Shown: positions 36,892 through 51,963 of the stretch, piece after piece
How positions within the stretch are numbered: position 1 is the stretch's first letter
Layout of the letters: each line of letters opens with the position of its first letter
Source of the DNA: an uncultured Candidatus Saccharibacteria bacterium
Lineage (GTDB): Bacteria > Patescibacteriota > Minisyncoccia > Phycocordibacterales > Zambryskibacteraceae
Assembly (NCBI GenBank): GCA_964383705.1
Contig: CAYLHJ010000005.1
Coordinates: 1-51,963 of the forward strand
Length of the DNA stretch: 51,963 nucleotides
Direction of reading: 5' to 3'
Notes under the pieces: generated by a model
The model's input: only the letters and a program-made list of their open reading frames with translations
Told to the model about the DNA's origin: nothing
The model's database searches: none
Position numbers and translations under genes: made by a program

Positions 36892-36916
36892 CCATGAAGC
36901 TTCACTATGTGATGAT
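36888..36916 (+). promoter_or_regulatory. Promoter candidate TTGACC-N14-TGTGATGAT
   Basis: The -35 embeds the upstream stop. Same -10 block as at 32183-32191. Followed by a leader with a GGAGAGGG SD for the Rrf2 gene. Confidence 0.4.
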
Positions 36917-38452: not shown

Positions 38453-39121
38453 TTTCAGAACACGTATCAGGTTCTCTACAGGAAGGTAGCTTAAGAGCAC
38501 CTTGTCACCCTGGACCACGCGCTCGTTCACTACGCCTACTAGCTTTCCGTTTCCGTCCACCACAGGACTTCCGGAGCTGCCATGATCGCCTTTAAGCGTA
38601 GTGTCCATAGTAGTCATATAAAGCTCGCATGTTCTGACAGGCTGACCTCTCTCGGTGGAGATACCTTGTCGAAAGCCGGCGGGGCAGCTTCTATCGAACT
38701 GGAAGAAGTCTATCCAAAAGGATACGAGCTGGGTCGTCTGACCAGAGACGACCTGAATGTTTTTATGTCCAGATGGGTACCCCGCCGTGTATACGTCCGC
38801 TCCGACAACTACGGAGGCTCCCACCTCTAACCCTCCGAACGAGGGAGACGTAAGGATGCACAGGTCTTCCGTGGGGACAGCCTTCAGGACCTGAGCCTTA
38901 ACGGTGGTTCCGGACGCCTCGTTAGCGGCGTCAGTCTCTGAGAAGCTCCTGCACACGTGCCAGTTGGTCACGAGGTACGACTTGCCGTTCCAGCGCACGG
39001 AGAAGGCGGTGCCTGTACTGACCTTGTAGGTGTTATCTCGGAGGAGCTTCTGAACTACGGGCTCCTTAGACGCGTAGGCTGCCGAGACTGCAAGCATGAC
39101 GAGCAGTGCCCAGGTTCTCAT
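38438..39121 (-). CDS. Secreted trypsin-like (S1/S1C) serine protease
   Basis: 227 aa. Signal peptide MRTWALLVMLAVSAAYA. Triad contexts VTNWHV (His), EDLCIL (Asp), GDHGSSGSPVV (Ser). Opposite strand to its neighbours, with a 15-nt convergent overlap with def. Confidence 0.8.
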   Translation of the reverse strand: MRTWALLVMLAVSAAYASKEPVVQKLLRDNTYKVSTGTAFSVRWNGKSYLVTNWHVCRSFSETDAANEASGTTVKAQVLKAVPTEDLCILTSPSFGGLEVGASVVVGADVYTAGYPSGHKNIQVVSGQTTQLVSFWIDFFQFDRSCPAGFRQGISTERGQPVRTCELYMTTMDTTLKGDHGSSGSPVVDGNGKLVGVVNERVVQGDKVLLSYLPVENLIRVLKLLEP

Positions 39122-39448: not shown

Positions 39449-39702
39449 GCACTGACAAGGAGAAGATCCGTCAGATGATGATGACCCACCTTCGGGAGAA
39501 GGGTTATCCCAACTTGACCTCGAAGCAGATCCTTGCCGAGCTTAAGCCTATGTGGGTCAAGCTCGGAGAAGCAGGACTCCTTCAGAAGAGTTGGAAGTAC
39601 ACGGACTTCGTGGGAGAAGCAGAGGCGGCGGAGCATCTGATCAACCTGAAAGCAGCCATGCAAGAAGAGCTGATGCAGCACTTCGCGAGGTTCCGAAAGT
39701 GA
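39445..39702 (+). CDS. Hypothetical protein
   Basis: 85 aa, ATGA coupling. Confidence 0.55.
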   Translation: MSTDKEKIRQMMMTHLREKGYPNLTSKQILAELKPMWVKLGEAGLLQKSWKYTDFVGEAEAAEHLINLKAAMQEELMQHFARFRK

Positions 39703-39899
39703 CCTACGACGAAGCTAAGAATCAGCAAGTAGAAGCTTTCGAGCAAGGACGCTACTACATCGTCCGCGAGTCTGACACAGGCGAGTTTCACTTGCTTCCT
39801 ACCACCTCTAGGGATCTTGCGCTAGCGTCCATCCAGACGCCCAAATCTCAGGTCATCCGCATGCCGGCGCGCCTTCGCGCGATCCGAGGTGACGGATGA
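39699..39899 (+). CDS. Hypothetical protein (start revised to the GTG at 39699)
   Basis: GTGA coupling. 66 aa. Confidence 0.5.
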   Translation: MTYDEAKNQQVEAFEQGRYYIVRESDTGEFHLLPTTSRDLALASIQTPKSQVIRMPARLRAIRGDG

Positions 39900-40096
39900 T
39901 CCAGCGCAGCGCCTTGCGACGAGCGGTGTGGGCGTCCTTCTCGCGGGTGATCGGGGTCATCCTGGCCACCGGCGCAGGAAGCATCATCCGAGACATGTTC
40001 GGAGACAGTCTTAAGCATCTAGGCACTGCCGCACTTCTGGTGCTAGCGTCCTGGATTTTGATGATGTTCGGCGAGTACGAACGCGAGAAAGATTAG
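39896..40096 (+). CDS. Small membrane protein (2 TM)
   Basis: 66 aa, ATGA coupling. Confidence 0.55.
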   Translation: MIQRSALRRAVWASFSRVIGVILATGAGSIIRDMFGDSLKHLGTAALLVLASWILMMFGEYEREKD

Positions 40097-40097
40097 C

Positions 40098-40126
40098 TTG
40101 ACGTCGCCTGTCAAGTGCCATAGCCT
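40098..40126 (+). promoter_or_regulatory. Sigma70-type promoter TTGACG-N17-TAGCCT
   Basis: Intergenic. Leader with an AGGAG SD before the AAA ATPase gene. The -35 lies inside the inverted repeat CTTGAC-N7-GTCAAG. Confidence 0.5.
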
Positions 40127-40147
40127 ACTACCTTAGGAGTTCACAAG

Positions 40148-41071
40148 ATGACTGAGTACGCTACATACCTGAAGATCGCCCATCAGTATCAGCCGATCCC
40201 GGAAGCTAAGACGGCCGCGCACCTACCGCCAGGCATCTACACGGTGAAGTATGATCCGCGAGACGAGTCCATCGCGTTCGCCGAGTCGAAGACCACGCAC
40301 GACGAGCTTGTAGACCTCCCCGGCACGGCGTACGATGATGTGCTCGCAGACCTGGAGTACTTCTTCACCGACGAGTGCCTCACCCGGTTCAACGAGGTTG
40401 GCCTCCTGCGGAAGATGAACATCCTTCTGTACGGAGTCCCCGGCGGCGGTAAGACGTGCATCGTGAACCGCGTAGCCATGAAGATGATGGCCGAGAAGGG
40501 GGTCGTGCTGTTCAACCCTCCTCCTTCCGCGCTCAAAGAGATCTTCCGAGTCCTGGACAAGCTTCAGCCGCAGACTCCGGTCCTGGTCATCTTCGAGGAG
40601 CTGGACCAGATGATCAAGACTCACGGGGAAGGCCCATTCCTTCACGTCCTTGATGGCGAGATCCAGAAGGCTAACGCCATGTTTATAGCCACCACGAACT
40701 TCATCAACGAGATCCCTAAGCGGATCCGGCGTCCTGGACGCTTCGCGGTTCGCCGAGAAGTTGGCTTGCCTGGCTTCGAAGCTCGTAACCACTACTGTCA
40801 GCTGAAGCTGAAGAACGACCACGAGCTGGCCACCAAGATCGCGACCCTCACGAACAACTTCAACATCGATCAGCTCAAGGACGTCATCCGCGAGCACTAC
40901 TGCATGAAGAAGCCGCTCGAAGGAGTCCTGGCCAACCTTCGCAGGGAGTTCGAGATCCCCGAGTCTGGAGAGGTCTCCCACGGCGACGCTCCTGAGGAGG
41001 AGTACTGTGAGGACTTCGAAGATTTCGAGGACGGTTCCAAGCTTGACAACAAGGTGAAGATCCGGAAGTAA
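40148..41071 (+). CDS. Classic-clade AAA ATPase
   Basis: 307 aa. Walker A GVPGGGKT, Walker B VLVIFEELD, second region of homology RRPGRFAVRREVGLP. Confidence 0.85.
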   Translation: MTEYATYLKIAHQYQPIPEAKTAAHLPPGIYTVKYDPRDESIAFAESKTTHDELVDLPGTAYDDVLADLEYFFTDECLTRFNEVGLLRKMNILLYGVPGGGKTCIVNRVAMKMMAEKGVVLFNPPPSALKEIFRVLDKLQPQTPVLVIFEELDQMIKTHGEGPFLHVLDGEIQKANAMFIATTNFINEIPKRIRRPGRFAVRREVGLPGFEARNHYCQLKLKNDHELATKIATLTNNFNIDQLKDVIREHYCMKKPLEGVLANLRREFEIPESGEVSHGDAPEEEYCEDFEDFEDGSKLDNKVKIRK

Positions 41072-41073
41072 CC

Positions 41074-41358
41074 ATGCGCAAGGTAGGACTATTTATAGTC
41101 ACGCTGCTCCACGACATCACCCAGGCAGGGTACTCCGTCAAGTTCAACAAGGACTTCAACGGTATGATGCGCGTGGACTTCTTCAAGGAGCAGGTGGCCG
41201 AGTTCTACGAGCACCTTCACTGCGGCTTCCCAGGAGCCTCTCGCGATGAGCTTGAGAAGCACGTGATCCAGTCCCTGATCTGGTTCAAGACTACCTACTC
41301 TATCGAAGACAGAACGAGGCACGACGATGACCCGACAGACGTACCCCCTGCGGCTTGA
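41074..41358 (+). CDS. Hypothetical protein
   Basis: 94 aa ORF. Confidence 0.55.
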   Translation: MRKVGLFIVTLLHDITQAGYSVKFNKDFNGMMRVDFFKEQVAEFYEHLHCGFPGASRDELEKHVIQSLIWFKTTYSIEDRTRHDDDPTDVPPAA

Positions 41359-41896
41359 GGGAGTGATCCTGATCTACACCGACGGAGGAAACCCGTCTGT
41401 TCGCAGGTTCACCAGCATGGCCAACCTGGAAGGTTGGGTTGGTCGGTTCTTCATCCAGAACCACCGGTCCGACGACCACTGGATCGACGGCATCGTCGAA
41501 GGCGCTTTGACCGTCGTCGACGAATCTTTGAGGATCTACGATGAAGCTCCTGATAATGGCTCAGAACCCCAAGAAGAAGATCAACGTGCTCAACCCCATG
41601 AAGGGGACGCGCAGCTGGACCCTGCTGGAGCAGTGGCTTACGGAAGCGGGGATCCCGCTCAGCGACGTGAAGATCCAGAACACGTTCCAAGCGGTAGGGT
41701 CTCGGAAATTGTCGACGAAGGGCAAGCTGAAGCAGGGCGGCTGGATCAAAGAGCTGATAGGAGCGCCCGTGATCGTATGCTTGGGCGCGCTGGCTCGCTC
41801 AGCGCTTGTGGAGACGAGGACGATGTACTACCCACAGATTGCGACGTGGGATCACTTCTTCATTCCGCACCCCAGCGGTCTGAACCGAGTTCTTAA
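41327..41896 (+). CDS. Hypothetical protein; only codons 1-71 (to about 41540) look coding, but the frame stays open across the next gene
   Basis: GC3 bias is strong to 41540 and then collapses exactly where the Mug-like ORF begins. No stop codon until 41896. Confidence 0.35.
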   Translation: MTRQTYPLRLEGVILIYTDGGNPSVRRFTSMANLEGWVGRFFIQNHRSDDHWIDGIVEGALTVVDESLRIYDEAPDNGSEPQEEDQRAQPHEGDAQLDPAGAVAYGSGDPAQRREDPEHVPSGRVSEIVDEGQAEAGRLDQRADRSARDRMLGRAGSLSACGDEDDVLPTDCDVGSLLHSAPQRSEPSS

Positions 41897-41984
41897 CAAC
41901 CCTGAAGAGCACCTGAAAGCCGTCGAGACGCTGCGAAAGGCACACGGTCGGTTGAAGCAGCTGAGGAGCTATGAACGCGTTTAG
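41541..41984 (+). CDS. UDG-superfamily DNA glycosylase-like protein (Mug/TDG-like motifs)
   Basis: 147 aa. LLIMAQNPK aligns with the Mug motif A GINPG. FFIPHPSGLNRV aligns with the Mug motif B LPNPSGLSRV. Confidence 0.6.
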   Translation: MKLLIMAQNPKKKINVLNPMKGTRSWTLLEQWLTEAGIPLSDVKIQNTFQAVGSRKLSTKGKLKQGGWIKELIGAPVIVCLGALARSALVETRTMYYPQIATWDHFFIPHPSGLNRVLNNPEEHLKAVETLRKAHGRLKQLRSYERV

Positions 41985-42264
41985 GAAGTTTTTAGAAGAC
42001 AACAAAGGCGAGCGCATGAAGATCACCAAGCTGCGCGCTCTCCCTGGGAGGGTTCGCGACAGCGGCATCCTGGAGGGAGAGTCTTACTACGGGCGAGCTG
42101 GTCTCATGAGGGGTGAGGATGACGACGGAACTCCTCGCTCAGGACTGGTCTTGGACGGCGGGTGGACCATGAGGACCTCCTGGGTTCGCGGCGTCAAGAA
42201 AGAAGGCCCCAACTCGTGGCTCGTAAAGACGAATAACTCGGTGTATCGAGTGCAGGTGGCCTGA
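41971..42264 (+). CDS. Hypothetical protein
   Basis: 97 aa ORF. Confidence 0.55.
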   Translation: MNAFRKFLEDNKGERMKITKLRALPGRVRDSGILEGESYYGRAGLMRGEDDDGTPRSGLVLDGGWTMRTSWVRGVKKEGPNSWLVKTNNSVYRVQVA

Positions 42265-42908
42265 TGAGCAAGACCTTCATCACCTCAGACCTTCACTTCT
42301 GGCACGAGAACGTGATCAAGTACTGCAGCCGTCCATTCGCGAACGCTGCCGAGATGAACGAGGCTCTGATCAAAGCTTGGAACAGTGCGGTAGCTCCGGA
42401 AGACGTCGTACTGATCCTAGGCGACTTCGCGATGGCCGCTCGCGCCGTCGAGCAGATCGTACCCCGGCTAAATGGTCGCAAGCGCCTTATCCTAGGTAAC
42501 CATGACTTCCCGCATCCCGCCCACTCTAAGGGGCGGAAGCCTGAGCTTCGAGAGAAGTGGACCAGCCTGTACCTGAGCTACGGCTTCGAGTCCGTGGAGC
42601 TTGAGGGAGAGCTGAAGGTCCCCGGAGTCGCTAACTTCCGGATGTTTCACCTGCCGTACACCGACGCTACTGACACGCACCAGGACGGAATGCCTCGACA
42701 CTTCCGAGAGCGCTTGAAGGATGACGGGATCCCTCTCCTGTGCGGGCACGTTCATGAGAAGTGGCTGTTCCGGCGCACGCCCGCTGGAACTCCTCAGCTG
42801 AACGTAGGAGTTGACGCTCCCGGCGCCCCGTGGTCGGGTCAGTACCGCCCTGCAACCCTCGAAGAGGTCGTAAGCGTGTACCTAAAGAACGTGGGAGAAG
42901 CGCTATGA
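42264..42908 (+). CDS. Calcineurin-like metallophosphoesterase
   Basis: 214 aa. Motifs SDLHFWH, LGDFA, GNHD, GHVHE. Confidence 0.85.
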   Translation: MSKTFITSDLHFWHENVIKYCSRPFANAAEMNEALIKAWNSAVAPEDVVLILGDFAMAARAVEQIVPRLNGRKRLILGNHDFPHPAHSKGRKPELREKWTSLYLSYGFESVELEGELKVPGVANFRMFHLPYTDATDTHQDGMPRHFRERLKDDGIPLLCGHVHEKWLFRRTPAGTPQLNVGVDAPGAPWSGQYRPATLEEVVSVYLKNVGEAL

Positions 42909-43246
42909 AGATCGTCGTAACCGGCGGCCGAGACTACGAAGATGAGGCGATGATCTACGACGTCCTGGACGGTCTTAGCCCCACTACACTCTTCGTAGGC
43001 GACTGCCCCACCGGCGCCGACAGGGTCGCCCGCGAGTGGGCGGAGACTACTGGCGTAGAGCTTCGCGTGTTCGAGGCTGACTGGACCAAACACGGGAAGG
43101 CTGCTGGTCCCGTGAGGAACGGCCAGATGCTCAACGCGGCCGGACCTGACTGCTTCGTGGTTGCGTTCAAGGGTGGACGCGGTACGAGCGACTGCGCTCG
43201 TCAGGCGGTTGGAAAGAACATGATCGTACTGAGGGTAGAAGCATGA
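42905..43246 (+). CDS. DUF2493 / YspA-like SLOG-family protein (start revised)
   Basis: ATGA coupling at 42905. 113 aa. VVTGGRDYED...GADRVAREWA...FEADWTKHGKAAGPVRNGQML...FKGGRGT is the DUF2493 pattern. Confidence 0.75.
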   Translation: MKIVVTGGRDYEDEAMIYDVLDGLSPTTLFVGDCPTGADRVAREWAETTGVELRVFEADWTKHGKAAGPVRNGQMLNAAGPDCFVVAFKGGRGTSDCARQAVGKNMIVLRVEA

Positions 43247-43467
43247 ACAGCCGAGTTAACAGCGTGAAACGTCTAGCGTTGCTCAGCACCATGCAGGGTG
43301 CCGGACGGTACCTTGAGTGCTTAGAGTTCTGGACTCGGACCTGGAAGGCGGACCTTCCGAAAGAGTTTGTTGACGAGGTTGAGAAAGACTTCGTTGAGTA
43401 CGCGCAGAAGATGACGGAAGCGCAGCTTCCCTTCAAGAAGATCGAGGCCATCGGTGAACTTCCGTAA
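43243..43467 (+). CDS. Hypothetical protein
   Basis: 74 aa, ATGA coupling. Confidence 0.55.
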   Translation: MNSRVNSVKRLALLSTMQGAGRYLECLEFWTRTWKADLPKEFVDEVEKDFVEYAQKMTEAQLPFKKIEAIGELP

Positions 43468-43999
43468 GAGTTTAGTCGTATCGCTGTTGATCCATACCGC
43501 GTGGACGTTGATGGTCGTAGGAGTCATCGCGTTAGGCGGTAAGGGAGAAGGCCAGAGAGGTCCTACAGGATCGCCGCAGCCTGAGCAAACTCCTGGACAG
43601 GGGCAGCTGCCTGAGGTGTTAGAGGTAGACATCATACCTCCTCCGAAGAAGCAGGACACGAACCCGGACGCTCCTGACCTGGACGAGGACGGCATCCTTC
43701 AGAAGGCTCCGCACGCGTCGGACGACTGCGATAGCTACTTCGGAGGCATCGGCATCACCCAGAGCTGGGTCTCGGACCCGAACGGCGAGGGCACGATCAC
43801 GGTGGTAGACGAGGTTCACGACGGGTACCCGGCCTCCCGAGCAGGCCTCATGAGAGGCGATCAGATACTGAACCGCGACGAGATACGCGGGAAGATCGGC
43901 ACTACCGTAGTCGTAGAGATCCGGCGACACGGGATGCAGATCAGCTTCATCATCGTTAGAGACAAGATCTGTACGTCACCAATAAAGGAGAGTCCATGA
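43454..43999 (+). CDS. Membrane-anchored PDZ-domain protein
   Basis: 181 aa. GTG start. N-terminal TM, Pro-rich linker, then GIGIT...VVDEVHDGYPASRAGLMRGDQILN...VVVEIRRHG (PDZ). Confidence 0.65.
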   Translation: MNFRKSLVVSLLIHTAWTLMVVGVIALGGKGEGQRGPTGSPQPEQTPGQGQLPEVLEVDIIPPPKKQDTNPDAPDLDEDGILQKAPHASDDCDSYFGGIGITQSWVSDPNGEGTITVVDEVHDGYPASRAGLMRGDQILNRDEIRGKIGTTVVVEIRRHGMQISFIIVRDKICTSPIKESP

Positions 44000-44574
44000 G
44001 CAAAGCAACATATATCGCCGTAGACACAGAAACCGGAGGGTTGGGAGGAGACGTGTCACTTCTGACCGCCTACCTAGCCATCCTGGACGAGAAGCTTGAG
44101 ATCATCGACGAGCTAGACCTCGCGGTCAAGCCGGACAACCACGTCTACCACGTGACCGCCGAAGCGCTGAAGATCAACAAGATCGACCTGGTAAAGCACG
44201 AGGAGAGAGCTATCTCTCCGGGGAAGGCGGGAGAGCTGTTCCGCGAGCTGATCAAGAAGCACTCGGACGGCGGGAAGAACAAGCTGATCCCGCTAGGTCA
44301 TAACGTAGCGTTCGACATGAACAAGCTGTACGACAACATCCTGAGCAAGAAGGAGGCTGAGAACTTCATCAGCTACAGAACGCTTGACACAGGCTCGACC
44401 GGTCGCTTCTTGATCGTGGCTGGATTGATCCCGGAAACCGTTACCGGAAGCCTAGGGTCATACGTGAAGCATTTAGGTGTCAAGGAGCGAGAAGCTCACA
44501 CCGCGCGAGGAGACGTTGAGATGACCATCGACGTCATGAAAGCGATGATCGGCCTTGTCGAACGACAGATCTGA
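43996..44574 (+). CDS. DEDDh 3'-5' exonuclease (DnaQ/RNase T-like)
   Basis: 192 aa. ExoI AVDTETGG, ExoII GHNVAFDMNKL, ExoIII HTARGDVEMT. Confidence 0.85.
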   Translation: MSKATYIAVDTETGGLGGDVSLLTAYLAILDEKLEIIDELDLAVKPDNHVYHVTAEALKINKIDLVKHEERAISPGKAGELFRELIKKHSDGGKNKLIPLGHNVAFDMNKLYDNILSKKEAENFISYRTLDTGSTGRFLIVAGLIPETVTGSLGSYVKHLGVKEREAHTARGDVEMTIDVMKAMIGLVERQI

Positions 44575-44983
44575 CACGCCCCATCACCGCTTGATCACCA
44601 AGCTTCGAAAGGTCGCGCACGAGCATGGCCTTCGCCTGCGCCGGACTAACATAAAGTCGGCGTCAGGGTTCTACGACCCGGCGACACACACGATCATGCT
44701 CAATCCCAATCACCCGGCTAGGGTGGTGATCTCGACGTTCTTTCACGAGCTGTCCCACTACCTAGATCATCGCGATGGACTGTTCAAGCGTTTCTACTCT
44801 CTAGCCACGCCGAAGTACGTGCTAAGGCGCATAGCGCTGCGGGCAGAGCGTCACGCGGACGAGCGTGGGCGCAAGGAGTGTCAGAAGATGTTTCCTAGGG
44901 TCAAGTACGTGGTCGTTTATCGGAGCAGCGTAGACGTTCACTACCTGAAGCTCTACTACAAGGATTGGCGAAAGAAGCGTTGA
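44555..44983 (+). CDS. SprT-like HExxH metallopeptidase-fold protein
   Basis: 142 aa. TTG start. SGFYDPATHTIMLNP...TFFHELSHYLDH. Confidence 0.55.
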   Translation: MSNDRSDTPHHRLITKLRKVAHEHGLRLRRTNIKSASGFYDPATHTIMLNPNHPARVVISTFFHELSHYLDHRDGLFKRFYSLATPKYVLRRIALRAERHADERGRKECQKMFPRVKYVVVYRSSVDVHYLKLYYKDWRKKR

Positions 44984-45008
44984 CACTGCCGGCCTAGCCT
45001 TATAGATT
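44980..45008 (+). promoter_or_regulatory. Sigma70-type promoter TTGACA-N17-TAGATT
   Basis: The consensus -35 embeds the upstream stop. Only 9 nt lie between the -10 and the ATG at 45018 (very short leader, or leaderless). Confidence 0.45.
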
Positions 45009-45017
45009 CAAGCTCGG

Positions 45018-45200
45018 ATGTGCTTGCTCTGCGTAGAGATCCAGAAAGGTAAGCTGACCGCCTCCGAGATCGCACGGAACTACCGTGAGATGTCGGACCA
45101 GGATCACGAGATGGACGTTCTCGTCGAGCTGGTTAAGGTGGGTCGCGCCGATGAGGTAGCGGACGCTCTGAGCAAGCTCTACGACGAGGAGAACCGATGA
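45018..45200 (+). CDS. Hypothetical protein
   Basis: 60 aa ORF. Confidence 0.5.
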   Translation: MCLLCVEIQKGKLTASEIARNYREMSDQDHEMDVLVELVKVGRADEVADALSKLYDEENR

Positions 45201-45424
45201 CCCGTCAGAACGCGAACCGCCGAATCTTAGAACTGCTGGAGTCTCTGGTAGAGACTCATCCCGACCAACGTTTCATGCAGCTTCTTTTCAACGCCGACGT
45301 TCTGAAGACTGATGAGTCGACGTCCTCGGACAACGGAAAACCTTCGGTAGTAAATGAGTATCACATCGAGTCCGTAGGACTCCTTGAGAGGGTACGTAAC
45401 AGTAAGATCTGGGAGGTCACATGA
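45197..45424 (+). CDS. Hypothetical protein
   Basis: 75 aa, ATGA coupling. Confidence 0.55.
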   Translation: MTRQNANRRILELLESLVETHPDQRFMQLLFNADVLKTDESTSSDNGKPSVVNEYHIESVGLLERVRNSKIWEVT

Positions 45425-45648
45425 GCGCAGAGTTCGTAAGCAGCACGAGTCCGTACGGTAAAGAAACTGAGACCCAAGTCGGGAACAACCTGTTCCAGGA
45501 CGTGGTAGCGAAGCCTTACAAGGCCGCCTACGACATGGTTCGAGCGTTGGGACCTCGCCAGCTGACCCCAGAACAACGCAAGCGCAAGGCTAAGAACCGC
45601 GCTAAGCGCAAAGGTCAGCGCGTAGCTCGGCGACGGAGTCGAGGATGA
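45421..45648 (+). CDS. Hypothetical protein with strongly basic C-terminus
   Basis: 75 aa. KRKAKNRAKRKGQRVARRRSRG tail. Confidence 0.55.
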   Translation: MSAEFVSSTSPYGKETETQVGNNLFQDVVAKPYKAAYDMVRALGPRQLTPEQRKRKAKNRAKRKGQRVARRRSRG

Positions 45649-45920
45649 GGTTTAAAACCAAGCCTATCGAGATCGAAGCGTTTGAGTACACGGGAGACGT
45701 CTCTGCGGCTCTAGCTTGGTCTGCCGAAGTGAGTCCAGGAATCTCAGCAGGAACCTATCTTTACGGTGTCGGTCGAGACGAAGACCCACAGCTGAAGATC
45801 CACACTCTTGAAGGAGACATGCACGTCTCCAGAGGAGACTGGGTGATCAAGGGACTTAAGGGTGAGTTTTATCCTTGCAAGCCAGACGTATTCGCTCAGA
45901 AGTATGAGAGGGTCGTATGA
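45645..45920 (+). CDS. Conserved phage hypothetical protein (GDWVIKG...EFYPCKPDVF motif)
   Basis: 91 aa, ATGA coupling. Confidence 0.6.
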   Translation: MRFKTKPIEIEAFEYTGDVSAALAWSAEVSPGISAGTYLYGVGRDEDPQLKIHTLEGDMHVSRGDWVIKGLKGEFYPCKPDVFAQKYERVV

Positions 45921-46447
45921 AGGTATACGTAGCAGGGCCGGACGTGTTCCGGCCTGACGCGCAAGCGAACGCTGACAAGGTGAAGCAGCTTCTCGCCAGC
46001 CACGGGATAGAAGCGCTGATCCCGATCGACAACGACGTAGACGTGGTAGGTAAGTCTTACTACCAGATCGCCACCGAGATCTATCAGAAGAACGTCAAGA
46101 TGATCGACGAGGCAGACGCCGTCATCGCGAACATAGAACCGTTCCGAGGCGTTCACATGGACCCGGGAACCGCCTTCGAGATCGGGTACGCCGTGGCCAG
46201 AGGGAAGCCCGTCTACACGTTCACGCCTTACGCAGGAACGCCGATCATAGGTCGGACGGAGTGGCGTCAGGAAGGCGACGTACACCGGGACGAGAAGGGG
46301 TGCTTCATCGAGAACTTCGGTGAGACCGAGAACTTGATGATCATCATCCCGTCTGAGGCTACCGTGAAGAGCGTCGAGCAGGCGGTAGCTTGTCTGGTGC
46401 GAGACAACACCGAGAGCCCGAACGATAGCTTCGAAGAGCACGCCTGA
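45917..46447 (+). CDS. Nucleoside 2-deoxyribosyltransferase-like protein
   Basis: 176 aa. MKVYVAGPDVF and DPGTAFEIGYAVARGKPVY match the Nuc_deoxyrib_tr family pattern. Confidence 0.75.
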   Translation: MKVYVAGPDVFRPDAQANADKVKQLLASHGIEALIPIDNDVDVVGKSYYQIATEIYQKNVKMIDEADAVIANIEPFRGVHMDPGTAFEIGYAVARGKPVYTFTPYAGTPIIGRTEWRQEGDVHRDEKGCFIENFGETENLMIIIPSEATVKSVEQAVACLVRDNTESPNDSFEEHA

Positions 46448-46677
46448 TGAACATCCTGAAGGCTAAACGAGTCGAAGAGCTGCGATGCGGACAGAGGATG
46501 CACTCCTGGCGTCGGATCTCTGAGATCATCTGCGACGAGTTTCCGGACGAGCCTCAGGAGTTGCACGGGAACCAACTTCACGGGATGGACCTTTGCAGAG
46601 ACGCTATGTGCTTCCTGGGCGGTTACGAGGACCTGAGCAATGTTCCTGACGCGGAACGAGACAGGTGGGACACTTGA
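46447..46677 (+). CDS. Hypothetical protein
   Basis: 76 aa ORF. Confidence 0.5.
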   Translation: MNILKAKRVEELRCGQRMHSWRRISEIICDEFPDEPQELHGNQLHGMDLCRDAMCFLGGYEDLSNVPDAERDRWDT

Positions 46678-46871
46678 TCCCTTTCAACAAGATCGAGTAC
46701 CCTACGTGCCCGAACTGTAACGTGCTGCAGAACAGCATGCAGATCTTCTCGCTAGACGACTTCACGACGCCCTACTTCAAGCTGAAGAACTGCCTGAGCT
46801 GTAAGAAGCCTTTCTTGCTGAAGGTCCGTGTCGAACTTTTAACCGAAGCTGTTCCGGTGGAGGACTACTGA
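46665..46871 (+). CDS. Zinc-ribbon protein
   Basis: 68 aa. CPNC...CLSC. Alternative TTGA-coupled start at 46674. Confidence 0.55.
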   Translation: MGHLIPFNKIEYPTCPNCNVLQNSMQIFSLDDFTTPYFKLKNCLSCKKPFLLKVRVELLTEAVPVEDY

Positions 46872-47059
46872 TGTCTGCAGAAGAGAAGTTGAAGAAGAAC
46901 ATCAAGGCGTTCTTGGAGGCCCTCACGGACTCTACCAAGACGCCTCACGTCTCAGACGACGTACGTTTTGAGGCTCACCAGATCCTTCAAGACGCGGACG
47001 CCTTGAACAAGGAGCAGATCGCGATACGGGTAGCAGCCCTTACCAAAGGGATCCCGTAA
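46871..47059 (+). CDS. Hypothetical protein
   Basis: 62 aa ORF. Confidence 0.5.
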   Translation: MSAEEKLKKNIKAFLEALTDSTKTPHVSDDVRFEAHQILQDADALNKEQIAIRVAALTKGIP

Positions 47060-47071
47060 CTTAGCTCGATG

Positions 47072-47101
47072 TTGCGCTTCGTACCGCAAGTGCGGTATGC
47101 T
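47072..47101 (+). promoter_or_regulatory. Weak promoter candidate TTGCGC-N18-TATGCT, with a structured leader
   Basis: Located in the 103-nt gap before the Prs-like gene. Hairpins TACCGC-aagt-GCGGTA and GCCGCC-tgatt-GGCGGT. Strong SD GAGGAGGA. Confidence 0.3.
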
Positions 47102-47162
47102 GGTGTGGAAGCCGCCTGATTGGCGGTAGCTGAGTCGGAAGGATAGTTCCGAGGAGGACGAC

Positions 47163-47939
47163 ATGATCACGCTGAACGGCCAACCGTTGCCGGTTACCTT
47201 ATTCCCAGACCGCACGTCTCAGGTGTGGAAGCTTCCCGAAGAGATCTTGACCAGGACGAACTACGCACACGTCGTGTGGAAGTTCGAGAGCGAGGGTGAG
47301 TTCCTTCACGTCGCTCAGCTCAAGGACCTGCTTGACGCGCACGGGATCGCCGCCACCCTGCGCCTTACGTACCTACCGTACGGACGACAAGACAAAGCTC
47401 TAAGCAACAACGCCACGTTCGCCCTGACCACCTTCGCGCGACTGCTCAACTCGCTGCGGTTCTACGAGGTAGTGATCCACGACCCACACAGCAGCATGGC
47501 GCTGCACCTGATCAACAACTCCCGCCCTCAGTACCCCAAGGCTCAGATCAAGCAGGCCCTCGCGGACTGCGAGATCGACATGGTCTGCTACCCCGACGCG
47601 GGCGCCCTAGAGAAGTACTCTAACACCTACGAACTCGACCGACCGGTGATCCACGGTGAGAAAGTTCGAGACCAGTCTACCGGAAACATCCTGAGCTACC
47701 AGCTCGTAGGAGACCCCAAGGATCGCAACGTCCTGATCGTCGACGACATCTGCGACGGCGGGATGACGTTCAAGCTTCTGGCCAGAGACCTGCTGGCCAA
47801 AGGTGCGAGGAGCGTGGTGCTCTTCGTCACTCACGGTATCTTTTCCCGAGGAACGAGAACCCTCTTCGAGACGGGTATCAAACGCGTGTTCACGGCCGAC
47901 GGAGAAGTCGGCCCGCGCACCTGGTCACAACAACTCTGA
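47163..47939 (+). CDS. Ribose-phosphate pyrophosphokinase (Prs)-family enzyme; candidate ADP-ribose pyrophosphokinase (NARP1 Adps-like)
   Basis: 258 aa, shorter than a typical Prs. LTYLPYGRQDK, HDPHS, and PRTase loop VLIVDDICDGGMTF. Directly upstream of the NAMPT-like gene. Confidence 0.8.
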   Translation: MITLNGQPLPVTLFPDRTSQVWKLPEEILTRTNYAHVVWKFESEGEFLHVAQLKDLLDAHGIAATLRLTYLPYGRQDKALSNNATFALTTFARLLNSLRFYEVVIHDPHSSMALHLINNSRPQYPKAQIKQALADCEIDMVCYPDAGALEKYSNTYELDRPVIHGEKVRDQSTGNILSYQLVGDPKDRNVLIVDDICDGGMTFKLLARDLLAKGARSVVLFVTHGIFSRGTRTLFETGIKRVFTADGEVGPRTWSQQL

Positions 47940-47954
47940 TCTTAGGAGATTAAG

Positions 47955-49430
47955 ATGAGAAACCTAAACCCGATGTTACTAGCCGACTTCTACAAGCTGT
48001 CCCACAGGGCCATGTACCCACACGGCACCGAGACGGTCTACTCAACCTGGACTCCCCGAGCGAGCCGTATCAAGAACGTGCTCGAAGCGGTCCACTTTGG
48101 ACCCCAGGCCATGCTCAAGAAGATCACCGACTTCTTCGCCCGCGAGTTCTTCGCCAAGCCGAAAGAGGAGATCGTCTCCGACTACGCTCGCGTCGTGAAG
48201 CATACGCTGGGCGATCCCAACCCCTACACCAAGCACATCGAGGAGCTTCACGACCTAGGGTACCTACCTCTCTCGGTCCGGTCTCTTCCCGAGGGGTCGG
48301 TGGTACCTATCCGCACGCCGGTCATGACGATCCAGAACACGCATCCTCGCTTCTTCTGGCTCACCAACTACGTAGAGACTATTGCGAGCTGTGAGATGTG
48401 GCAGGCTTCTACCTCGGCCACGATCGCTAGGGAGTACCGTCGTCTGCTCGACGAAGCTGCGATGGAGACCGTGGGCAGTACGGACTTCGTGCAGTTCCAG
48501 GGACACGACTTTTCGATGCGCGGCATGAGTTCGTTAGACTCTGCGGTGTCGAGCGGCATGGGACACCTGCTGTCCTTCGCAGGCACCGACACGGTCCCCG
48601 CGATCCAAGCTGCCGAGCAGCTGTACGGTGCGGACGTTACCAAGGAGCTGGTGGGCACCTCGATCCCGGCCACCGAGCACTCTATCCAGTGCGCGTACGG
48701 CGACGACATGGACTACTACCGAAACATGATCAGCCGAGTTCACCCCTCCGGCTTCGTGTCTATCGTGTCTGACGGCTACGACTTCTGGGACGTCATCGGT
48801 CGCGTCATCCCTGCCCTGAAGCAGGACATCCTGGCACGCTCTGGCGGACCTTTGGGAGACCGAGTAGTAGTTCGACCTGACTCCGGAGATCCGGTCAAGA
48901 TCGTCTGCGGTGATCCTGACGCTCCAGTCGGAAGCTTGGAGCACAAGGGCGCTATCGAAGCTCTGTGGGACATCTTCGGCGGAACGCTATCTCCGAAGGG
49001 GTACCGCCTGCTGGACTCTCACATCGGCCTGATCTACGGAGACGCTATCACCCTGCACCGCGCCAAGGAGATCGTAGGCCGCCTCAAGGAGAAAGGCTTC
49101 GCCTCTATCAACGTGGTGTTCGGCATCGGCTCGTACACGTACCAGTACAACACTCGCGACACGCTTGGCTACGCGCTGAAGTCGACCTTGTGCGTGATCG
49201 ACGGTCAAGAGGTTCAGATCTTCAAGGATCCCAAGACGGACGACGGGACGAAGAAGTCTCAGAAGGGCCGAGTGGTGGTTCTTAAGGACGGGAACTCGTT
49301 CAAGCACCTAGACGGCTTCAGCCTGTCTGACGACGTCAAGGGAGACCAGCTCGTAGAGATCTTCCGCGACGGGAAGCTCCTGGTCGACGAGAAGTTCTCT
49401 GAGATCCGCGCGAGGCTTCGCTCCGCGTGA
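47955..49430 (+). CDS. nadV: Nicotinamide phosphoribosyltransferase family enzyme (NadV/NAMPT-like; candidate NARP1 Namat)
   Basis: 491 aa. Aligns by eye along its full length with bacterial NadV: LLADFYKLSHR, FFWLTNYVET, HDFSMRGMSS, GTSIPATEHS, RPDSGDP, IYGDAIT, NTRDTLGYALK, KKSQKGRV. Confidence 0.9.
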   Translation: MRNLNPMLLADFYKLSHRAMYPHGTETVYSTWTPRASRIKNVLEAVHFGPQAMLKKITDFFAREFFAKPKEEIVSDYARVVKHTLGDPNPYTKHIEELHDLGYLPLSVRSLPEGSVVPIRTPVMTIQNTHPRFFWLTNYVETIASCEMWQASTSATIAREYRRLLDEAAMETVGSTDFVQFQGHDFSMRGMSSLDSAVSSGMGHLLSFAGTDTVPAIQAAEQLYGADVTKELVGTSIPATEHSIQCAYGDDMDYYRNMISRVHPSGFVSIVSDGYDFWDVIGRVIPALKQDILARSGGPLGDRVVVRPDSGDPVKIVCGDPDAPVGSLEHKGAIEALWDIFGGTLSPKGYRLLDSHIGLIYGDAITLHRAKEIVGRLKEKGFASINVVFGIGSYTYQYNTRDTLGYALKSTLCVIDGQEVQIFKDPKTDDGTKKSQKGRVVVLKDGNSFKHLDGFSLSDDVKGDQLVEIFRDGKLLVDEKFSEIRARLRSA

Positions 49431-49852
49431 GGTATCGTACAGGAAACTTGTTCGACGCTCCGAAGGGCTCCTACCTGCTCCACGCGTGTAACTGCGTGGG
49501 GCGGTGGGGCTCTGGAGTTGCTGCTGAGTTCGCCCGACGCTTCCCCAAGGCGTACGGAGAGTACAAGGCTAGATGCAAGTACGGGGTCAAGCCGGGAGAC
49601 ATCTTCATCAGCTCGGAGGAGAACGGGTACCGGATAATCGGCCTGTTCACGTCGAAGGACTACGGAGATCGCGTAGACTCTCCGAGCAAGATCATCGAGG
49701 CGACTAAGGTCGCCATCCGGAAGCTTCCTTACGATCGTCCGATCCACATGCCCAAGATCAACTCAGGACTCTTTCGCGTCCCGTGGGAGAACACGGCCGC
49801 GCTCTTCCTCGAAGAGACCCGAGACATCACCGTATGGGAAGTTTCTCCTTGA
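49427..49852 (+). CDS. Macro domain protein, Poa1-like (ADP-ribose 1''-phosphate phosphatase type)
   Basis: 141 aa. GTGA coupling to nadV. HACNCVGRWGSGVA, GLFTS and MPKINSGLFRVPWENTA parallel yeast Poa1 HSCNCNGSWGGGIA, LFTS and MPQINSGIFGVPWKETE. Confidence 0.8.
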   Translation: MRYRTGNLFDAPKGSYLLHACNCVGRWGSGVAAEFARRFPKAYGEYKARCKYGVKPGDIFISSEENGYRIIGLFTSKDYGDRVDSPSKIIEATKVAIRKLPYDRPIHMPKINSGLFRVPWENTAALFLEETRDITVWEVSP

Positions 49853-49877
49853 CCGCACCGGTTTAGCCGGGTAGCTT
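49849..49877 (+). promoter_or_regulatory. Sigma70-type promoter TTGACC-N17-TAGCTT driving the tmRNA
   Basis: The -35 embeds the macro-gene stop. The -10 ends 6 nt before G49884, the predicted mature tmRNA 5' end. Confidence 0.6.
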
Positions 49878-49883
49878 CTACAT

Positions 49884-50285
49884 GGGGCCGACGGGTTTCG
49901 ACGGTCTTACGTGAAAGAGAAGAGCAAGCCCCGGTTGGTCGAAGGCCGGGTAAAAATCGACCACACAACCTGCCAACTCCAAAGTTGTCAGCTTGGATGC
50001 TTTCCGCGCTCGCAAGGGCGTGTTGAGCCTCCAACTCGCGGCCTAAGAACCACGACGGGGCTACCTGAGCGCCTTGTAAACAAAGCCAGGTAAACCGGGT
50101 GTTCAGCCGGGTAAAAAGAGGAAAATGGGGTTGCCGGACCTCAAGAAGAAAACCGGTTGGTGGAGGAAGCAAAGGCGCAAGCCGGAGCGTCCCTAAGGTC
50201 TGAGCCGGACTTGAAACGGCCTAAGCTTGTAGACCCTCTCTGGAACCAAGATCGGACGGGAGTTCAACTCTCCCCGGCTCCACCA
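49884..50285 (+). ncRNA. ssrA: Transfer-messenger RNA (tmRNA, one-piece)
   Basis: 5' GGGGCCGACGGGTTTCGACGG and 3' GGACGGGAGTTCAACTCTCCCCGGCTCCACCA match canonical tmRNA ends. Acceptor stem GGGGCCG/CGGCTCC has G3:U. T-arm GGGAG-TTCAACT-CTCCC. Encoded CCA. Tag ORF runs from GCC at 49972 (nt 89 of the RNA) to TAA at 50044-50046: ANSKVVSLDAFRARKGVLSLQLAA. Confidence 0.92.
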
Positions 50286-50305
50286 CATTGAATGTACCCA
50301 AAGTT

Positions 50306-50325
50306 GGTTCATATGAACCCGTTTT
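50306..50325 (+). terminator. Candidate terminator after the tmRNA
   Basis: GGTTC-atat-GAACC followed by CGTTTTGG. The stem is short. Confidence 0.35.
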
Positions 50326-50365
50326 GGTACTTGACCGTGACCGTCAAGCCTGGGAGGATCAGATC

Positions 50366-50695
50366 ATGAAGTGGTTCAAAGAACTCATCGCACGGATCTT
50401 CCTGGGTAAGAAAGTCACCAAAAGCTTCAACGTTAAAGATGCGGTCGCTACCGTTCACATGGACGACGGTCAAACTCATGCGATCTCTCGTAGAGGAACC
50501 CTTGATTCGTTCCGAAGCGAAGTTTACGGAGATGATGGTCGGGAACTTCTCGAACACTACATGTCGCACTCGAAGCGTCACATCTTGAAGGCCGACGACG
50601 GCACTCTTCTGCCCACCTGTCGCATCGCCAAGATCGAGATCTCCGAGACGGAGAGGCTGGAAGAGCATACATACCGAGACGGAGGCATCCTCTGA
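50366..50695 (+). CDS. Hypothetical protein (start revised)
   Basis: ATG at 50366 with a GGGAGGA SD. 109 aa. The track TTG start at 50288 abuts the tmRNA 3' end and is rejected. Confidence 0.6.
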   Translation: MKWFKELIARIFLGKKVTKSFNVKDAVATVHMDDGQTHAISRRGTLDSFRSEVYGDDGRELLEHYMSHSKRHILKADDGTLLPTCRIAKIEISETERLEEHTYRDGGIL

Positions 50696-50979
50696 TGGCG
50701 TTCATCAGTCGCTTCCAAGAAGAACCTACGAAGTCTGTCTTCAACGGAGTGCGACGCATCCGTCTTGAGATGGACGACGGCACAGAGGTCGTGCTTCGCG
50801 CGACCGACGTTCAGGTGGTTCCTCATCTTGACCACAGGGAGAACGTCTACAACGTCCGGATCAACGGCGAGGTGAGCCTCCTTGAGTTGGTCGAGGACAA
50901 GCTTCGTGAGGAGCCTTCCAAGCCGGAAGACGTAAACGGCAGCTTGAAGCGTCAGGTCGAGGAGTTTGAACTTCGATGA
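50695..50979 (+). CDS. Hypothetical protein
   Basis: 94 aa, TGATG junction. Confidence 0.55.
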   Translation: MAFISRFQEEPTKSVFNGVRRIRLEMDDGTEVVLRATDVQVVPHLDHRENVYNVRINGEVSLLELVEDKLREEPSKPEDVNGSLKRQVEEFELR

Positions 50980-51143
50980 GCCTCTTCGTAGACCGAAAGA
51001 TCGCCGCAGCTAGGAAGGCCGTATGCGCTACGTGCCCGAGCTTCGACGCGAAGCTGAAGCGCTGCAAGACGTGCAAGTGCTTCTTACCGCTTAAAACTCA
51101 GATGAAGGTTTCTACGTGTCCAGAAGGGAAGTGGAAGAGATGA
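50976..51143 (+). CDS. Small Cys-rich protein (below the track cutoff)
   Basis: 55 aa, MSLFVDRKIAAARKAVCATCPSFDAKLKRCKTCKCFLPLKTQMKVSTCPEGKWKR. ATGA coupling at both ends. Confidence 0.55.
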   Translation: MSLFVDRKIAAARKAVCATCPSFDAKLKRCKTCKCFLPLKTQMKVSTCPEGKWKR

Positions 51144-51469
51144 ACTTTGCTGTGCTGAACGACGTGAACTATCCCGGTGTGACGTTCCTTACCCGCATGG
51201 ACGGAGAGCGGCCGTACCTTCAAGTTGAAGCTCAAGTTGCTTGCTCCGCGACCGGTGACGTGAAGACGCAGAGAGGACGCAAGTGGTTCCTGTCTCCACA
51301 CATGACCCGTTCCGAGGTGGTCCAGACCGCCTTCAAGGCTGTCATGGCCTGGGAGGAGCACGAGGTTCGAGAGAAGTTCCAGTACCGAGGTAAGGCGGTC
51401 TTCGGGCCGCACTTCGACGTCGACGCGCTGTACGCGTTGGCCGTGTCCGGTAAGGAGGACGTCCGATGA
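51140..51469 (+). CDS. Hypothetical protein (start revised to MNFAVL)
   Basis: ATGA coupling. 109 aa. Confidence 0.55.
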   Translation: MNFAVLNDVNYPGVTFLTRMDGERPYLQVEAQVACSATGDVKTQRGRKWFLSPHMTRSEVVQTAFKAVMAWEEHEVREKFQYRGKAVFGPHFDVDALYALAVSGKEDVR

Positions 51470-51948
51470 AGGCTCGACTACTTAGCGTGGAGTCTGAGAG
51501 GATCCTCAACTACGAGGGTGCGGGTTCCATCATAAAAGGCGAAGTTCGCTTGCTCGGAGGCTGGGAAGAAGCTCAAGAGCTGATCCGACACGGAGAAGGG
51601 TTGGTTCTTGTGCCTATGAACAAGCAGCCTCAGGTGTTCGACGTCAAGAAGGGTGACGAGGTGAAGTACCAGTTCATCCGAGGTAGTGGAGGTCGAGAGC
51701 CTGAGATCTCCATCTGGATGAAGGTGAAGAGCGTCGACGGCGACATGATCACCTCTAGTCAGAACGGGCAGTACGGACCGTACGAGTTTCGCGTCTTGAA
51801 GTGCCAGATCGTAGAGCATCGCCCGAAGGGTAGTAAGGCTTCCTCGAAGAAGCCGGTCGTAGAGAACCCTAAGAAGGTTGAGGACCCTCGTCCTGACGAC
51901 GAGATAAGCAGCCTTCGTAAACAGATCCAGGAGTTCAACCTCACATGA
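51466..51948 (+). CDS. Hypothetical protein
   Basis: 160 aa, ATGA coupling. Confidence 0.6.
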   Translation: MKARLLSVESERILNYEGAGSIIKGEVRLLGGWEEAQELIRHGEGLVLVPMNKQPQVFDVKKGDEVKYQFIRGSGGREPEISIWMKVKSVDGDMITSSQNGQYGPYEFRVLKCQIVEHRPKGSKASSKKPVVENPKKVEDPRPDDEISSLRKQIQEFNLT

Positions 51949-51963
51949 AGAAGTTCTTTCAAG
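51945..51963 (+). CDS. Start of a further coupled ORF, truncated by the right edge
   Basis: ATGAAGAAGTTC in an ATGA overlap with the preceding stop. Only 6 codons are visible. Confidence 0.25.

Follow-up and report, generated by a model that had tools for sequence, protein, structure and literature searches.

Introduction

Transfer-messenger RNA (tmRNA) genes have been counted in 402 of 18,146 phage genomes, about 2.3% (PMC9004378); lists of tmRNA-bearing phages exist (PMC4131195), and huge phages carry tmRNAs too (PMC7162821). Here we describe a tmRNA (ssrA) gene at positions 49884 to 50285 on the plus strand of a 51,963-nucleotide (nt) stretch of phage DNA, contig CAYLHJ010000005.1, which is called the window throughout. 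An earlier note on this DNA had pointed out the gene and had held that tmRNA genes are rare in phages, a statement that the figures above show to be exaggerated. We consider it likely that the locus is a genuine, full-length, one-piece tmRNA gene, which the phage carries as a self-contained accessory cassette and which supplements ribosome rescue.

Like the one-piece tmRNAs of cluster C1 mycobacteriophages (e.g., Bxz1), Bacillus phage G, and huge phages, the window gene is a full-length ssrA in an accessory region of a large myovirus, with no adjacent integrase (PMC9004378, PMC4131195, PMC7162821, PMC13014143). Unlike them, it has no sequence match in any phage tmRNA of 50,697 GenBank phage records, which also hold no close relative of the phage itself; it is missed by the gene finder ARAGORN; and it lies in a 52-kb window in which ARAGORN finds no tRNA genes. 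Nor was SmpB found, either among 30 window proteins searched against Pfam or among the precomputed Pfam families for the called genes across 20 kb of a near-identical phage (L235, a 118.6-kb contig), which also sets the locus apart from the huge-phage trans-translation module with its own SmpB. With the two-piece phage tmRNAs (Melnitz, pelagiphages, and the viral tmRNA of L141/L166), the gene shares a phage-borne location after a putative early-type promoter (PMC9004378), and L141/L166 has a long basic tag whose C-terminal half is similar to that of the window tag; unlike the two-piece forms, the window gene is non-permuted and has no riboswitch. Derivatives of the DS6A type, which consist of the tRNA-like domain (TLD) only, have the same type of TLD (PMC4131195), but the window gene keeps the first pseudoknot (PK1), the tag frame, and the downstream helices. 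Finally, a tmRNA in an otherwise unrelated phage (L160) has nearly the same 5' and 3' ends, a nearly identical PK1, the same 24-codon frame, an identical 21-nt block encoding FRARKGV, and the same promoter-like layout; it is shorter and, unlike the window gene, has the canonical UAAAU ahead of its resume codon. Phage tmRNAs as such are thus known; what is notable in the window is a gene invisible to ARAGORN, with a non-consensus frame-setting triplet, a hairpin-encoded tag common to an unrelated phage, and patchy, compensatory variation.

Identification of a complete tmRNA gene

The Rfam tmRNA model (RF00023) matched 402 nt on the plus strand, 49884 to 50285, with 106 bits (gathering score, 47) and an E value of 1.7e-40, and the alignment covered model positions 1 to 374 of 374, i.e., the whole model. 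This was the sole Rfam match in the window. The order of the parts in the alignment is the standard, non-permuted one, not that of a two-piece tmRNA. The covariance-model check that the earlier note had proposed was therefore answered by a full-length match, and the 402-nt tmRNA that it had described, with canonical ends, a G3:U pair, a T-arm, and an encoded CCA, is present in the sequence at those positions. The gene and the parts of its TLD are as follows.

49884..50285, plus strand: complete one-piece tmRNA (ssrA) gene (full RF00023 model; structure test on alignment A4, described below)
49884..49890, plus strand: 5' strand of the acceptor stem, GGGGCCG (nt 1-7 of the RNA, with G3), pairing with 50275-50281
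50275..50285, plus strand: 3' strand of the acceptor stem, CGGCUCC, followed by the discriminator A and the encoded CCA (sequence reading, Rfam, and structure test)
50258..50274, plus strand: T-arm (nt 375-391), GGGAG-UUCAACU-CUCCC, with three double-sided pair changes in L235

The 7-bp acceptor stem (GGGGCCG/CGGCUCC), which includes the alanine identity pair G3:U396, is invariant across the three homologs. By contrast, three pairs of the 5-bp T-stem differ in L235 (G:C to C:G, G:C to U:A, and A:U to G:C). In the same homolog a change of G12 to A in the D-loop co-occurs with a change of C382 to U in the T-loop, a co-change that fits a possible tertiary contact of the G19:C56 type.

A hand-drawn structure of the full RNA was then counted on alignment A4, made up of the window tmRNA and those of the near-identical phage L235 and the unrelated phage L160. 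The modelled structure comprises the acceptor stem, helices P2a to P2c, PK1, an H5-like hairpin, two small hairpins, an H-type pseudoknot at nt 244 to 274, a hairpin at nt 291 to 308, a PK4-like element, and the T-arm. Across the 93 modelled pairs, 95% of the cells in A4 held standard pairs, and 18 pairs had changed on both sides, compared with 1 to 6 in controls in which the partners were slid by 1 to 3 columns. None of 500 shuffles scored as high as the observed alignment on any of five measures. Because three homologs hold 18 double-sided pair changes and no shuffle reached any measure, the observed tmRNA is not a chance pattern. All core elements of a tmRNA were shown to be present: the acceptor stem, T-arm, P2, PK1, an A at position -4, a GCC resume codon, a tag frame ending in LAA and stop, an H5-like hairpin, and at least one downstream pseudoknot. 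Between the two strands of the acceptor stem, the modelled elements lie in the following places, all on the plus strand.

49902..49929, plus strand: 5' strand of the long helix P2 (nt 19-46), pairing with 50225-50254
49930..49962, plus strand: pseudoknot PK1 (nt 47-79), with stems S1 CCCGG/CCGGG and S2 GGUCGA/UCGACC (fold, A4)
49993..50034, plus strand: H5-like extended hairpin within the tag frame (nt 110-151), with one double-sided change in the middle stem (fold)
50063..50110, plus strand: post-frame region in place of PK2, with hairpins at nt 180-184/204-208 and 212-215/224-227 (A4)
50127..50157, plus strand: H-type pseudoknot "PK3" (nt 244-274), with stems S1 GGGG/CCUC and S2 GCCGG/CCGGU (covariation)
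50174..50191, plus strand: hairpin (nt 291-308) GGCGC-AAGCCGGA-GCGUC, with one double-sided change in L160
50196..50220, plus strand: predicted PK4-like pseudoknot (nt 313-337), shared by the window and L235 only
50225..50254, plus strand: 3' strand of P2 (nt 342-371), with six L235 substitutions, all on this strand

Six of the double-sided changes fall among the 22 pairs of P2 (three in P2a, two in P2b, and one in P2c). The six one-sided changes of the P2 3' strand in L235 yield two G:U wobbles and two new pairs, and the other two lie outside modelled pairs. In PK1, S1 (47-51/63-67) is invariant and S2 (54-59/74-79) has G55:C78 replaced by A:U in L160; the pseudoknot ends 9 nt before the resume codon. 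The H5-like hairpin, the H-type pseudoknot at nt 244 to 274, and the hairpin at nt 291 to 308 all carry covariation. In the pseudoknot, three double-sided changes alter S1 in L235 (CCCUG/CAGGG) and two alter S2 in L160 (GUCAG/CUGAC), and at the place of the nt 291-308 hairpin L160 carries a UUCG loop. The two small hairpins of the post-frame region are less constant: the one at nt 180-184/204-208 is the same in the window and L235 and is missing in L160, and in place of the one at nt 212-215/224-227 L235 has AGAGG/CCUCU. Candidate crossing stems for PK2 were dropped, since they would need zero-length loops.

The comparison of the window with L235 is informative also for the rate of change. Within the tmRNA the two phages differ at 17 to 18 positions per 100 nt, compared with 0 to 8 in most 100-nt bins of the neighborhood; two bins (51017-51216) reach 13 to 14. 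The tmRNA differences are confined to two patches (nt 209-265 and 351-391) and one D-loop position, and nt 13 to 208, which hold PK1 and the whole tag frame, are identical. Differences inside modelled helices almost all preserve the pair, and the other clustered ones lie in the unmodelled stretch nt 209 to 243. Since these near-identical phages differ most in the tmRNA and yet the changes in its helices are almost all compensatory, the comparison shows that the helices are under strong selection in an accessory phage RNA, and the three-way set of window, L235, and L160 offers a clean natural experiment on tmRNA selection. A protein gene on either strand at this site was ruled out by 1-nt insertions or deletions between the window and L235.

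Failure of ARAGORN to detect the gene

Running ARAGORN, as the earlier note had suggested, returned no tRNA or tmRNA in the window even when the threshold was lowered as far as -ps60, and the L235 allele was missed as well. The L160 tmRNA, whose bases upstream of the resume codon are the canonical UAAAU, was found. When CCT just before the resume codon of the window gene was replaced in silico by AAT, ARAGORN called the gene with exactly the predicted tag. No such rescue followed from changing the resume codon alone, from swapping in the L160 tag, or from swapping in the L160 5' part; with the L160 3' part attached, the gene was called with a wrong tag. A defective gene as the cause of the miss is thus ruled out, a two-base change of the -1 triplet being enough to restore the call, and the cause is the non-consensus CCU that precedes the resume codon. 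Phage tmRNA surveys have relied on ARAGORN (PMC9004378, PMC7162821). Such surveys undercount, as they are blind to genes like this one over three bases, and a covariance model is advisable beside ARAGORN in this kind of work.

The tag and the bases that set its frame

Two features of the mRNA-like part need to be introduced here.

49963..49971, plus strand: frame-setting spacer ACACAACCU (nt 80-88), with A kept at -4, A at -5, C at -3, and CCU as the -1 triplet
49972..50046, plus strand: tag frame from the GCC resume codon (nt 89) to TAA, encoding ANSKVVSLDAFRARKGVLSLQLAA (sequence reading; ARAGORN after the swap)

The tag has 24 residues, a net charge of +3, and a C-terminal LAA, and its TAA stop stands at 50044-50046. 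The resume codon, tag length, and positive charge are all as they had been described. The further description of the tag as atypically long and basic is sound in relation to proteobacterial tags; it does not hold generally, for positively charged tags of 22 to 28 residues occur in other loci that we fetched. The L160 tag, ANDKIVSMDSFRARKGVAALQMVA, has the same 24 codons, frame, and stop position. The two tags differ at 9 of 24 residues, mostly conservatively, and their similarity is far above that of shuffled sequences. Within them the 21-nt block encoding FRARKGV is identical and the flanking codons differ. This block belongs to the H5-like hairpin, whose top, CGCGCUC-GCAA-GGGCGUG with a GNRA loop, encodes RARKGV and stands on a UGGA/UCCA stem that is kept in both the window and L160 RNAs; the hairpin folds in both, with z scores of -2.2 and -3.4, respectively. 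Because the most conserved block is nucleotide-identical and forms a GNRA hairpin, RNA structure suffices to account for the composition and conservation of the tag. Its long basic middle may best be seen as what a GC-rich H5 hairpin with a GNRA cap yields when translated in frame, and not as a peptide designed for some new target, and retargeting of tagged products or escape from SspB, which the earlier note had raised, is speculation. The window tag also resembles that of the two-piece viral tmRNA L141/L166 (AFPAR..VALQMAA); with a P value of 0.004 in 1 of 13 comparisons, or about 0.05 after correction, this similarity is suggestive only.

The bases ahead of the resume codon depart from the tmRNA consensus. 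In place of U at -5, A at -4, and a purine at -3, the window has A, A, and C, and L235 shares its A at -4, A at -5, and CCU; L160 and the tmRNAs of Candidatus Sumerlaeota, to which we return below, have the canonical UAAAU. In Escherichia coli the A at -4 is essential and nearly invariant, and a purine is found at -3 in nearly all natural tmRNAs; the U85A mutation, at -5, lowers activity and shifts the frame; and in a high-stringency assay a -1 triplet of CCU gave no survival, compared with 90 for AAU, although all 64 triplet mutants kept measurable function (PMC2481249). The upstream consensus is a strong tendency of the tmRNA family and no absolute rule. The unusual bases may simply reflect a different SmpB, and a natural CCU triplet at -1 offers a test of how universal the frame-setting rules of E. 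coli are.

Relatives of the gene and its insertion in the phage

In the data that were reached, the family consists of three genes: those of the window, L235, and L160. L235 is a 118.6-kb Logan contig (SRR12404947_8082, from Logan SRR12404947), found through a search with the Macro-domain protein encoded next to the tmRNA. Its tmRNA, which scores 90 bits, stands at the same place between the same flanking genes, and the two phages are 96 to 99.8% identical around the gene. The recurrence of the same flanking phage genes in this independent assembly bears out the view that a complete tmRNA lies inside a phage, as opposed to a piece of host DNA or a chimeric assembly. L160 is the IMG/VR entry UViG_3300037423_000848, in which a 336-nt tmRNA stands beside methylase, large terminase, and portal genes; the phage is otherwise unrelated, and its tmRNA lacks the equivalents of window nt 196-226 and 312-338 and thus has fewer downstream elements. 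It was the one true relative among 77 IMG/VR loci matched by a degenerate 3'-end pattern, many of which are fragments of the attachment-site type at contig ends.

Other searches added no member. A degenerate 5'-end pattern gave no further family members in IMG/VR, and a metagenome scan with the 5' 21-mer gave chance matches in GC-rich coding sequence and one unrelated bacterial tmRNA. In one genome from each of 185,579 species, the tag block and the PK1 signature gave 4 and 30 matches, respectively, all of them chance and none in a tmRNA. The FRARKGV pattern in IMG/VR found no tmRNA besides L160; the four matches that were examined all lay in coding sequence. Three of these four are N termini, MFRARKGV, of proteins that by eye look like terminases, and the peptide pattern alone is thus unsafe as a search query. 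Exact or near-exact copies of the tag nucleotide block TTCCGCGCTCGCAAGGGCGT open coding genes at L185:3290-3309, L196:3117-3136, and L181:5868-5888 and were judged to be chance matches.

The closest syntenic relatives of the phage are L236 and L237, with Macro proteins 69% identical to that of the window, and L238 to L240 (65%), which share the gene order from deformylase to Macro (in full in L236). Because these relatives carry the NAD-salvage genes without a tmRNA after Macro, the arrangement indicates that the tmRNA is an accessory cassette, apparently placed between Macro and the gene that follows it. Likewise, neither ARAGORN nor nhmmer revealed a tmRNA within about 6 kb at any of 80 IMG/VR loci with a PRPP-synthetase-like (PRS) gene and NAMPT, and Rfam gave none at the 11 closest of them. 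An association of the tmRNA with an NAD+ operon, as put forward earlier, thus holds for adjacency and fails for linkage, in that these 80 loci have no tmRNA nearby and the closest syntenic relatives have none after Macro; the link is positional only.

Putative transcription signals

49849..49854, plus strand: -35-like hexamer TTGACC, identical in L235 and overlapping the TGA stop of the Macro gene (sequence)
49872..49877, plus strand: -10-like hexamer TAGCTT, separated from the -35 hexamer by 17 nt and from the 5' G of the tmRNA (G49884) by 6 nt
50294..50330, plus strand: terminator-like imperfect palindrome hairpin, beginning 9 nt after CCA (terminator-like call, 50306-50319)

Both hexamers are unchanged in L235, with 5 of the 17 spacer bases different. 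L160 has TTGTCG-N17-TAGGGT at 8 nt before its tmRNA 5' G, and L236, which lacks the tmRNA, has TTGACC-N17-CATAAT at the equivalent spot directly after the Macro stop codon. The pattern TTGACC-N16-18-NANNNT occurs 14 times in the window, compared with 3.1 ± 1.6 expected, and several of the copies stand just upstream of plus-strand genes. A promoter upstream of the tmRNA is thus plausible: the claim that the gene has its own is favored by the hexamers, their spacing and position, conservation in L235, and enrichment of the motif, and the part of it that failed is recognition by a strict generic sigma-70 scan. Downstream, the terminator-like hairpin folds at -13.3 kcal/mol in the window and at -12.8 kcal/mol in L235 despite two substitutions.

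The enriched sites span 596 to 50855 of the window (e.g., 36888-36916, 39514-39543, 49849-49877, and 50331-50359), and TTGACC alone occurs 45 times, compared with 24 expected. Second hexamers at these sites read GATGAT, GATGCT, GAGCTT, TAGCTT, or GAGGAT and not TATAAT. The motif points to a type of promoter, used by the phage or the host, that combines a strong -35 element with a -10 element unlike that of E. coli.

A lead to the host

Among the genomes of the 185,579 species, the exact 5' 21-mer was found in one, a metagenome-assembled genome of Candidatus Sumerlaeota (L081), and the exact 3' 32-mer was found in ten, three from Sumerlaeota and the rest from Firmicutes; both ends occurred together only in L081. 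The last 34 nt are identical to those of the tmRNAs of three Sumerlaeota genomes (L081, L083, and L090), and over the 5' 21 nt L081 matches exactly, with one mismatch each in L083 and L090. The bodies of the Sumerlaeota tmRNAs diverge from that of the phage, and their tags, of 15 to 17 residues and acidic (e.g., VTNVVDIHDEVALAA, with a charge of -3), have no significant similarity to the phage tag. The comparison with bacterial ssrA that the earlier note had called for thus revealed no copy of a known host gene, the PK1 signature and tag block matching no tmRNA in any of the species covered. From the two ends, Sumerlaeota is a lead to the host or donor and no more, albeit a testable one; a literature search found no phage or virus papers on Sumerlaeota and nothing on the sample accessions.

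Proposed function and alternative explanations

If the gene works as a tmRNA, its transcription during infection would be driven by the TTGACC-type phage promoter, and the host alanyl-tRNA synthetase would charge the RNA with alanine. SmpB is taken to be that of the host, since no phage SmpB was found in the regions searched, and host SmpB and EF-Tu would deliver the RNA to ribosomes stalled on broken mRNAs. The ribosomes would be released while (A)ANSKVVSLDAFRARKGVLSLQLAA is added to the stalled product, and the LAA end of the tag should route such products to host proteases. The likely benefit would be extra capacity for ribosome rescue when nucleases of the host or phage, or defense systems, cut RNA. 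Such a benefit fits the peptide deformylase gene of the window (37970-38452) and a gene for a GGQ/RF-1 domain protein that falls just past the window's end. Together with the tmRNA, the deformylase, the GGQ protein, and the NAD+ salvage genes could form a tool kit that sustains translation under defenses that target RNA or NAD.

Several observations weigh against the reading of the locus as a rescue cassette. Only three members of the family were found, two of them from closely related phages, and the gene is dispensable, there being no tmRNA after the Macro gene in L236 to L240. No PK2 pseudoknot could be resolved in the post-frame region at 50063..50110. The window and L235 do not differ in the predicted PK4-like element, and L160 has it deleted, so that it shows no covariation. 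The strict sigma-70 scan passes over the promoter, TAGCTT having only three of six positions in common with TATAAT. The Sumerlaeota link comes only from the two ends of the TLD, of which the 3' end is found also in some Firmicutes. Lastly, the frame-setting bases are the main ground for doubting efficient in-frame tagging: with non-consensus bases at -5 and -3 and CCU at -1, tagging could be inefficient or shifted unless the host SmpB is tolerant.

The same bases are the starting point for a different explanation, namely, that the RNA is kept for a non-canonical role, either releasing ribosomes with inefficient or frame-shifted tagging or binding and titrating host SmpB through its TLD. The lack of survival with CCU in E. 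coli and the A at -5 agree with such a role, and precedents exist in the TLD-only tmRNA derivatives of phages such as mycobacteriophage DS6A, a molecule of this kind having been found to inhibit tmRNA, perhaps by titrating SmpB (PMC4131195). Elements of about 80 nt with a TLD only were also seen in five viral contigs. We nevertheless regard a non-canonical role as unlikely. The essential A at -4 is retained, all 64 triplet mutants were measurably functional in E. coli, the 75-nt frame is intact, equal in length to that of L160, and canonical in its LAA end, and PK1 and H5, which a pure SmpB sponge would not need, are conserved.

A shade less probable is the proposal that the window, L235, and L160 (perhaps with the two-piece L141/L166) represent a phage-specific class of tmRNA in which the long basic tag and the frame-setting bases are adaptive and mark the products of cut host mRNAs differently from the acidic tag of the host. 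Trans-translation would then serve the phage for more than ribosome recycling, and the distinct mark could alter the fate of tagged products or evade host machinery that detects or exploits the native tag.

Still more doubtful is a proposal in which the tag is a phage-specific peptide signal selected to alter the fate of tagged proteins by avoiding host adaptors or feeding a phage protease or PDZ protein. The tag is conserved in the unrelated phage L160 with conservative replacements (V/I, L/M, and A/S), but 9 of the 24 residues differ, and the best-conserved block is the nucleotide-identical GNRA hairpin, for which RNA structure is explanation enough. The likeness to the two-piece tag (P = 0.004, uncorrected, in 13 comparisons) would point the same way as the conservation, but it falls to about 0.05 once corrected. 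The charge of +3, compared with -3 in Sumerlaeota, and the presence in the window of genes for a trypsin-like protease and a weak PDZ-like protein are also in its favor. A dedicated link between the tag and these two genes is, however, unsupported, L236 having both of them and no tmRNA after the Macro gene or anywhere in the 20.4 kb examined.

It is very improbable that the gene is instead a chance capture of a host ssrA, a chimera of the assembly, or an attachment site used by a temperate phage for integration into the host tmRNA gene: both TLD ends are identical to those of a Sumerlaeota tmRNA, a tyrosine recombinase is encoded at 35467-36366, and many viral contigs end in tmRNA 3' fragments, but the gene is full length and no mere 3' fragment, it has phage genes on both sides in two independent assemblies, its body and tag match no tmRNA in one genome for each of the 185,579 species, the tags of the putative host type are short and acidic, the recombinase, the nearest one, is 13.5 kb away, and the window holds no second copy of the tmRNA 3' end.

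The phage and the neighborhood of the gene

The window belongs to a tailed phage with a tail sheath, baseplate proteins, and a major head protein, the last only 30 to 36% identical to its counterparts in SPO1-like myoviruses; the carrier is a novel, previously unsequenced myovirus. Upstream of the tmRNA lie the PRS-like gene, NAMPT, and the Macro gene (47163-49852).

49427..49852, plus strand: Macro-domain protein, upstream neighbor of the tmRNA and last of the PRS-like/NAMPT/Macro block (Pfam PF01661, 3.5e-12)

Homologs of the Macro protein are named ADP-ribose 1''-phosphate phosphatase by their source. A nucleoside 2-deoxyribosyltransferase gene (45917-46447) precedes the block. IMG/VR phages commonly carry the PRS-NAMPT pair (80 loci with 44 to 75% identity), which sometimes stands beside tRNA arrays (L005/L012). 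On the other side, a search of 5.8 billion proteins gave the L235 copy as the single homolog of the gene that directly follows the tmRNA (50366-50695), and a gene at 51466-51948 has no homolog in IMG/VR. The GGQ/RF-1 protein is a stand-alone domain of about 109 amino acids encoded about 2 kb downstream of the tmRNA site in L235 (12938-13267) and L236 (11349-11675); the gene would fall about 400 nt past the right end of the window. It matches Pfam PF00472 and, weakly, the NCBIfam models for RF1, RF2, PrfH, and ArfB, and it may be an ArfB-like peptidyl-tRNA hydrolase.

The tyrosine recombinase has a Phage_integrase domain and a SAM-like N-terminal domain and is joined in the window by an Rrf2-family regulator and an IrrE/M78-like metallopeptidase (DUF6782), the three genes lying at 35467-36366, 36938-37315, and 44555-44983, respectively. 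Their presence together hints at a temperate lifestyle or a regulated switch. The trypsin-like serine protease is encoded at 38438-39121 on the minus strand, and the weak PDZ-like protein, which is below the Pfam cutoff, is encoded at 43454-43999 on the plus strand; together they resemble a split HtrA-type pair.

The tmRNA-like elements of about 80 nt mentioned above are located in five IMG/VR contigs (L243:3423-3502; L246:4657-4736, minus strand; L247:44-123; L248:859-938; and L245:5130-5183, cut off). ARAGORN does not call them. Their acceptor stem, D-loop, P2a, and T-arm are of the tmRNA type, a small hairpin replaces the whole mRNA and pseudoknot body, and they end in ACGA and not ACCA. 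They resemble the TLD-only RNA of mycobacteriophage DS6A (PMC4131195).

Aligned with L235:6491-12545, window positions 45917 to 51963 show patchy divergence, from 0 to 18 differences per 100 nt. A second hot patch besides the tmRNA lies at 51017-51516, and the 6.1 kb to the left (39495-45629) are 99.8% identical. Such patchy divergence suggests mosaic recombination.

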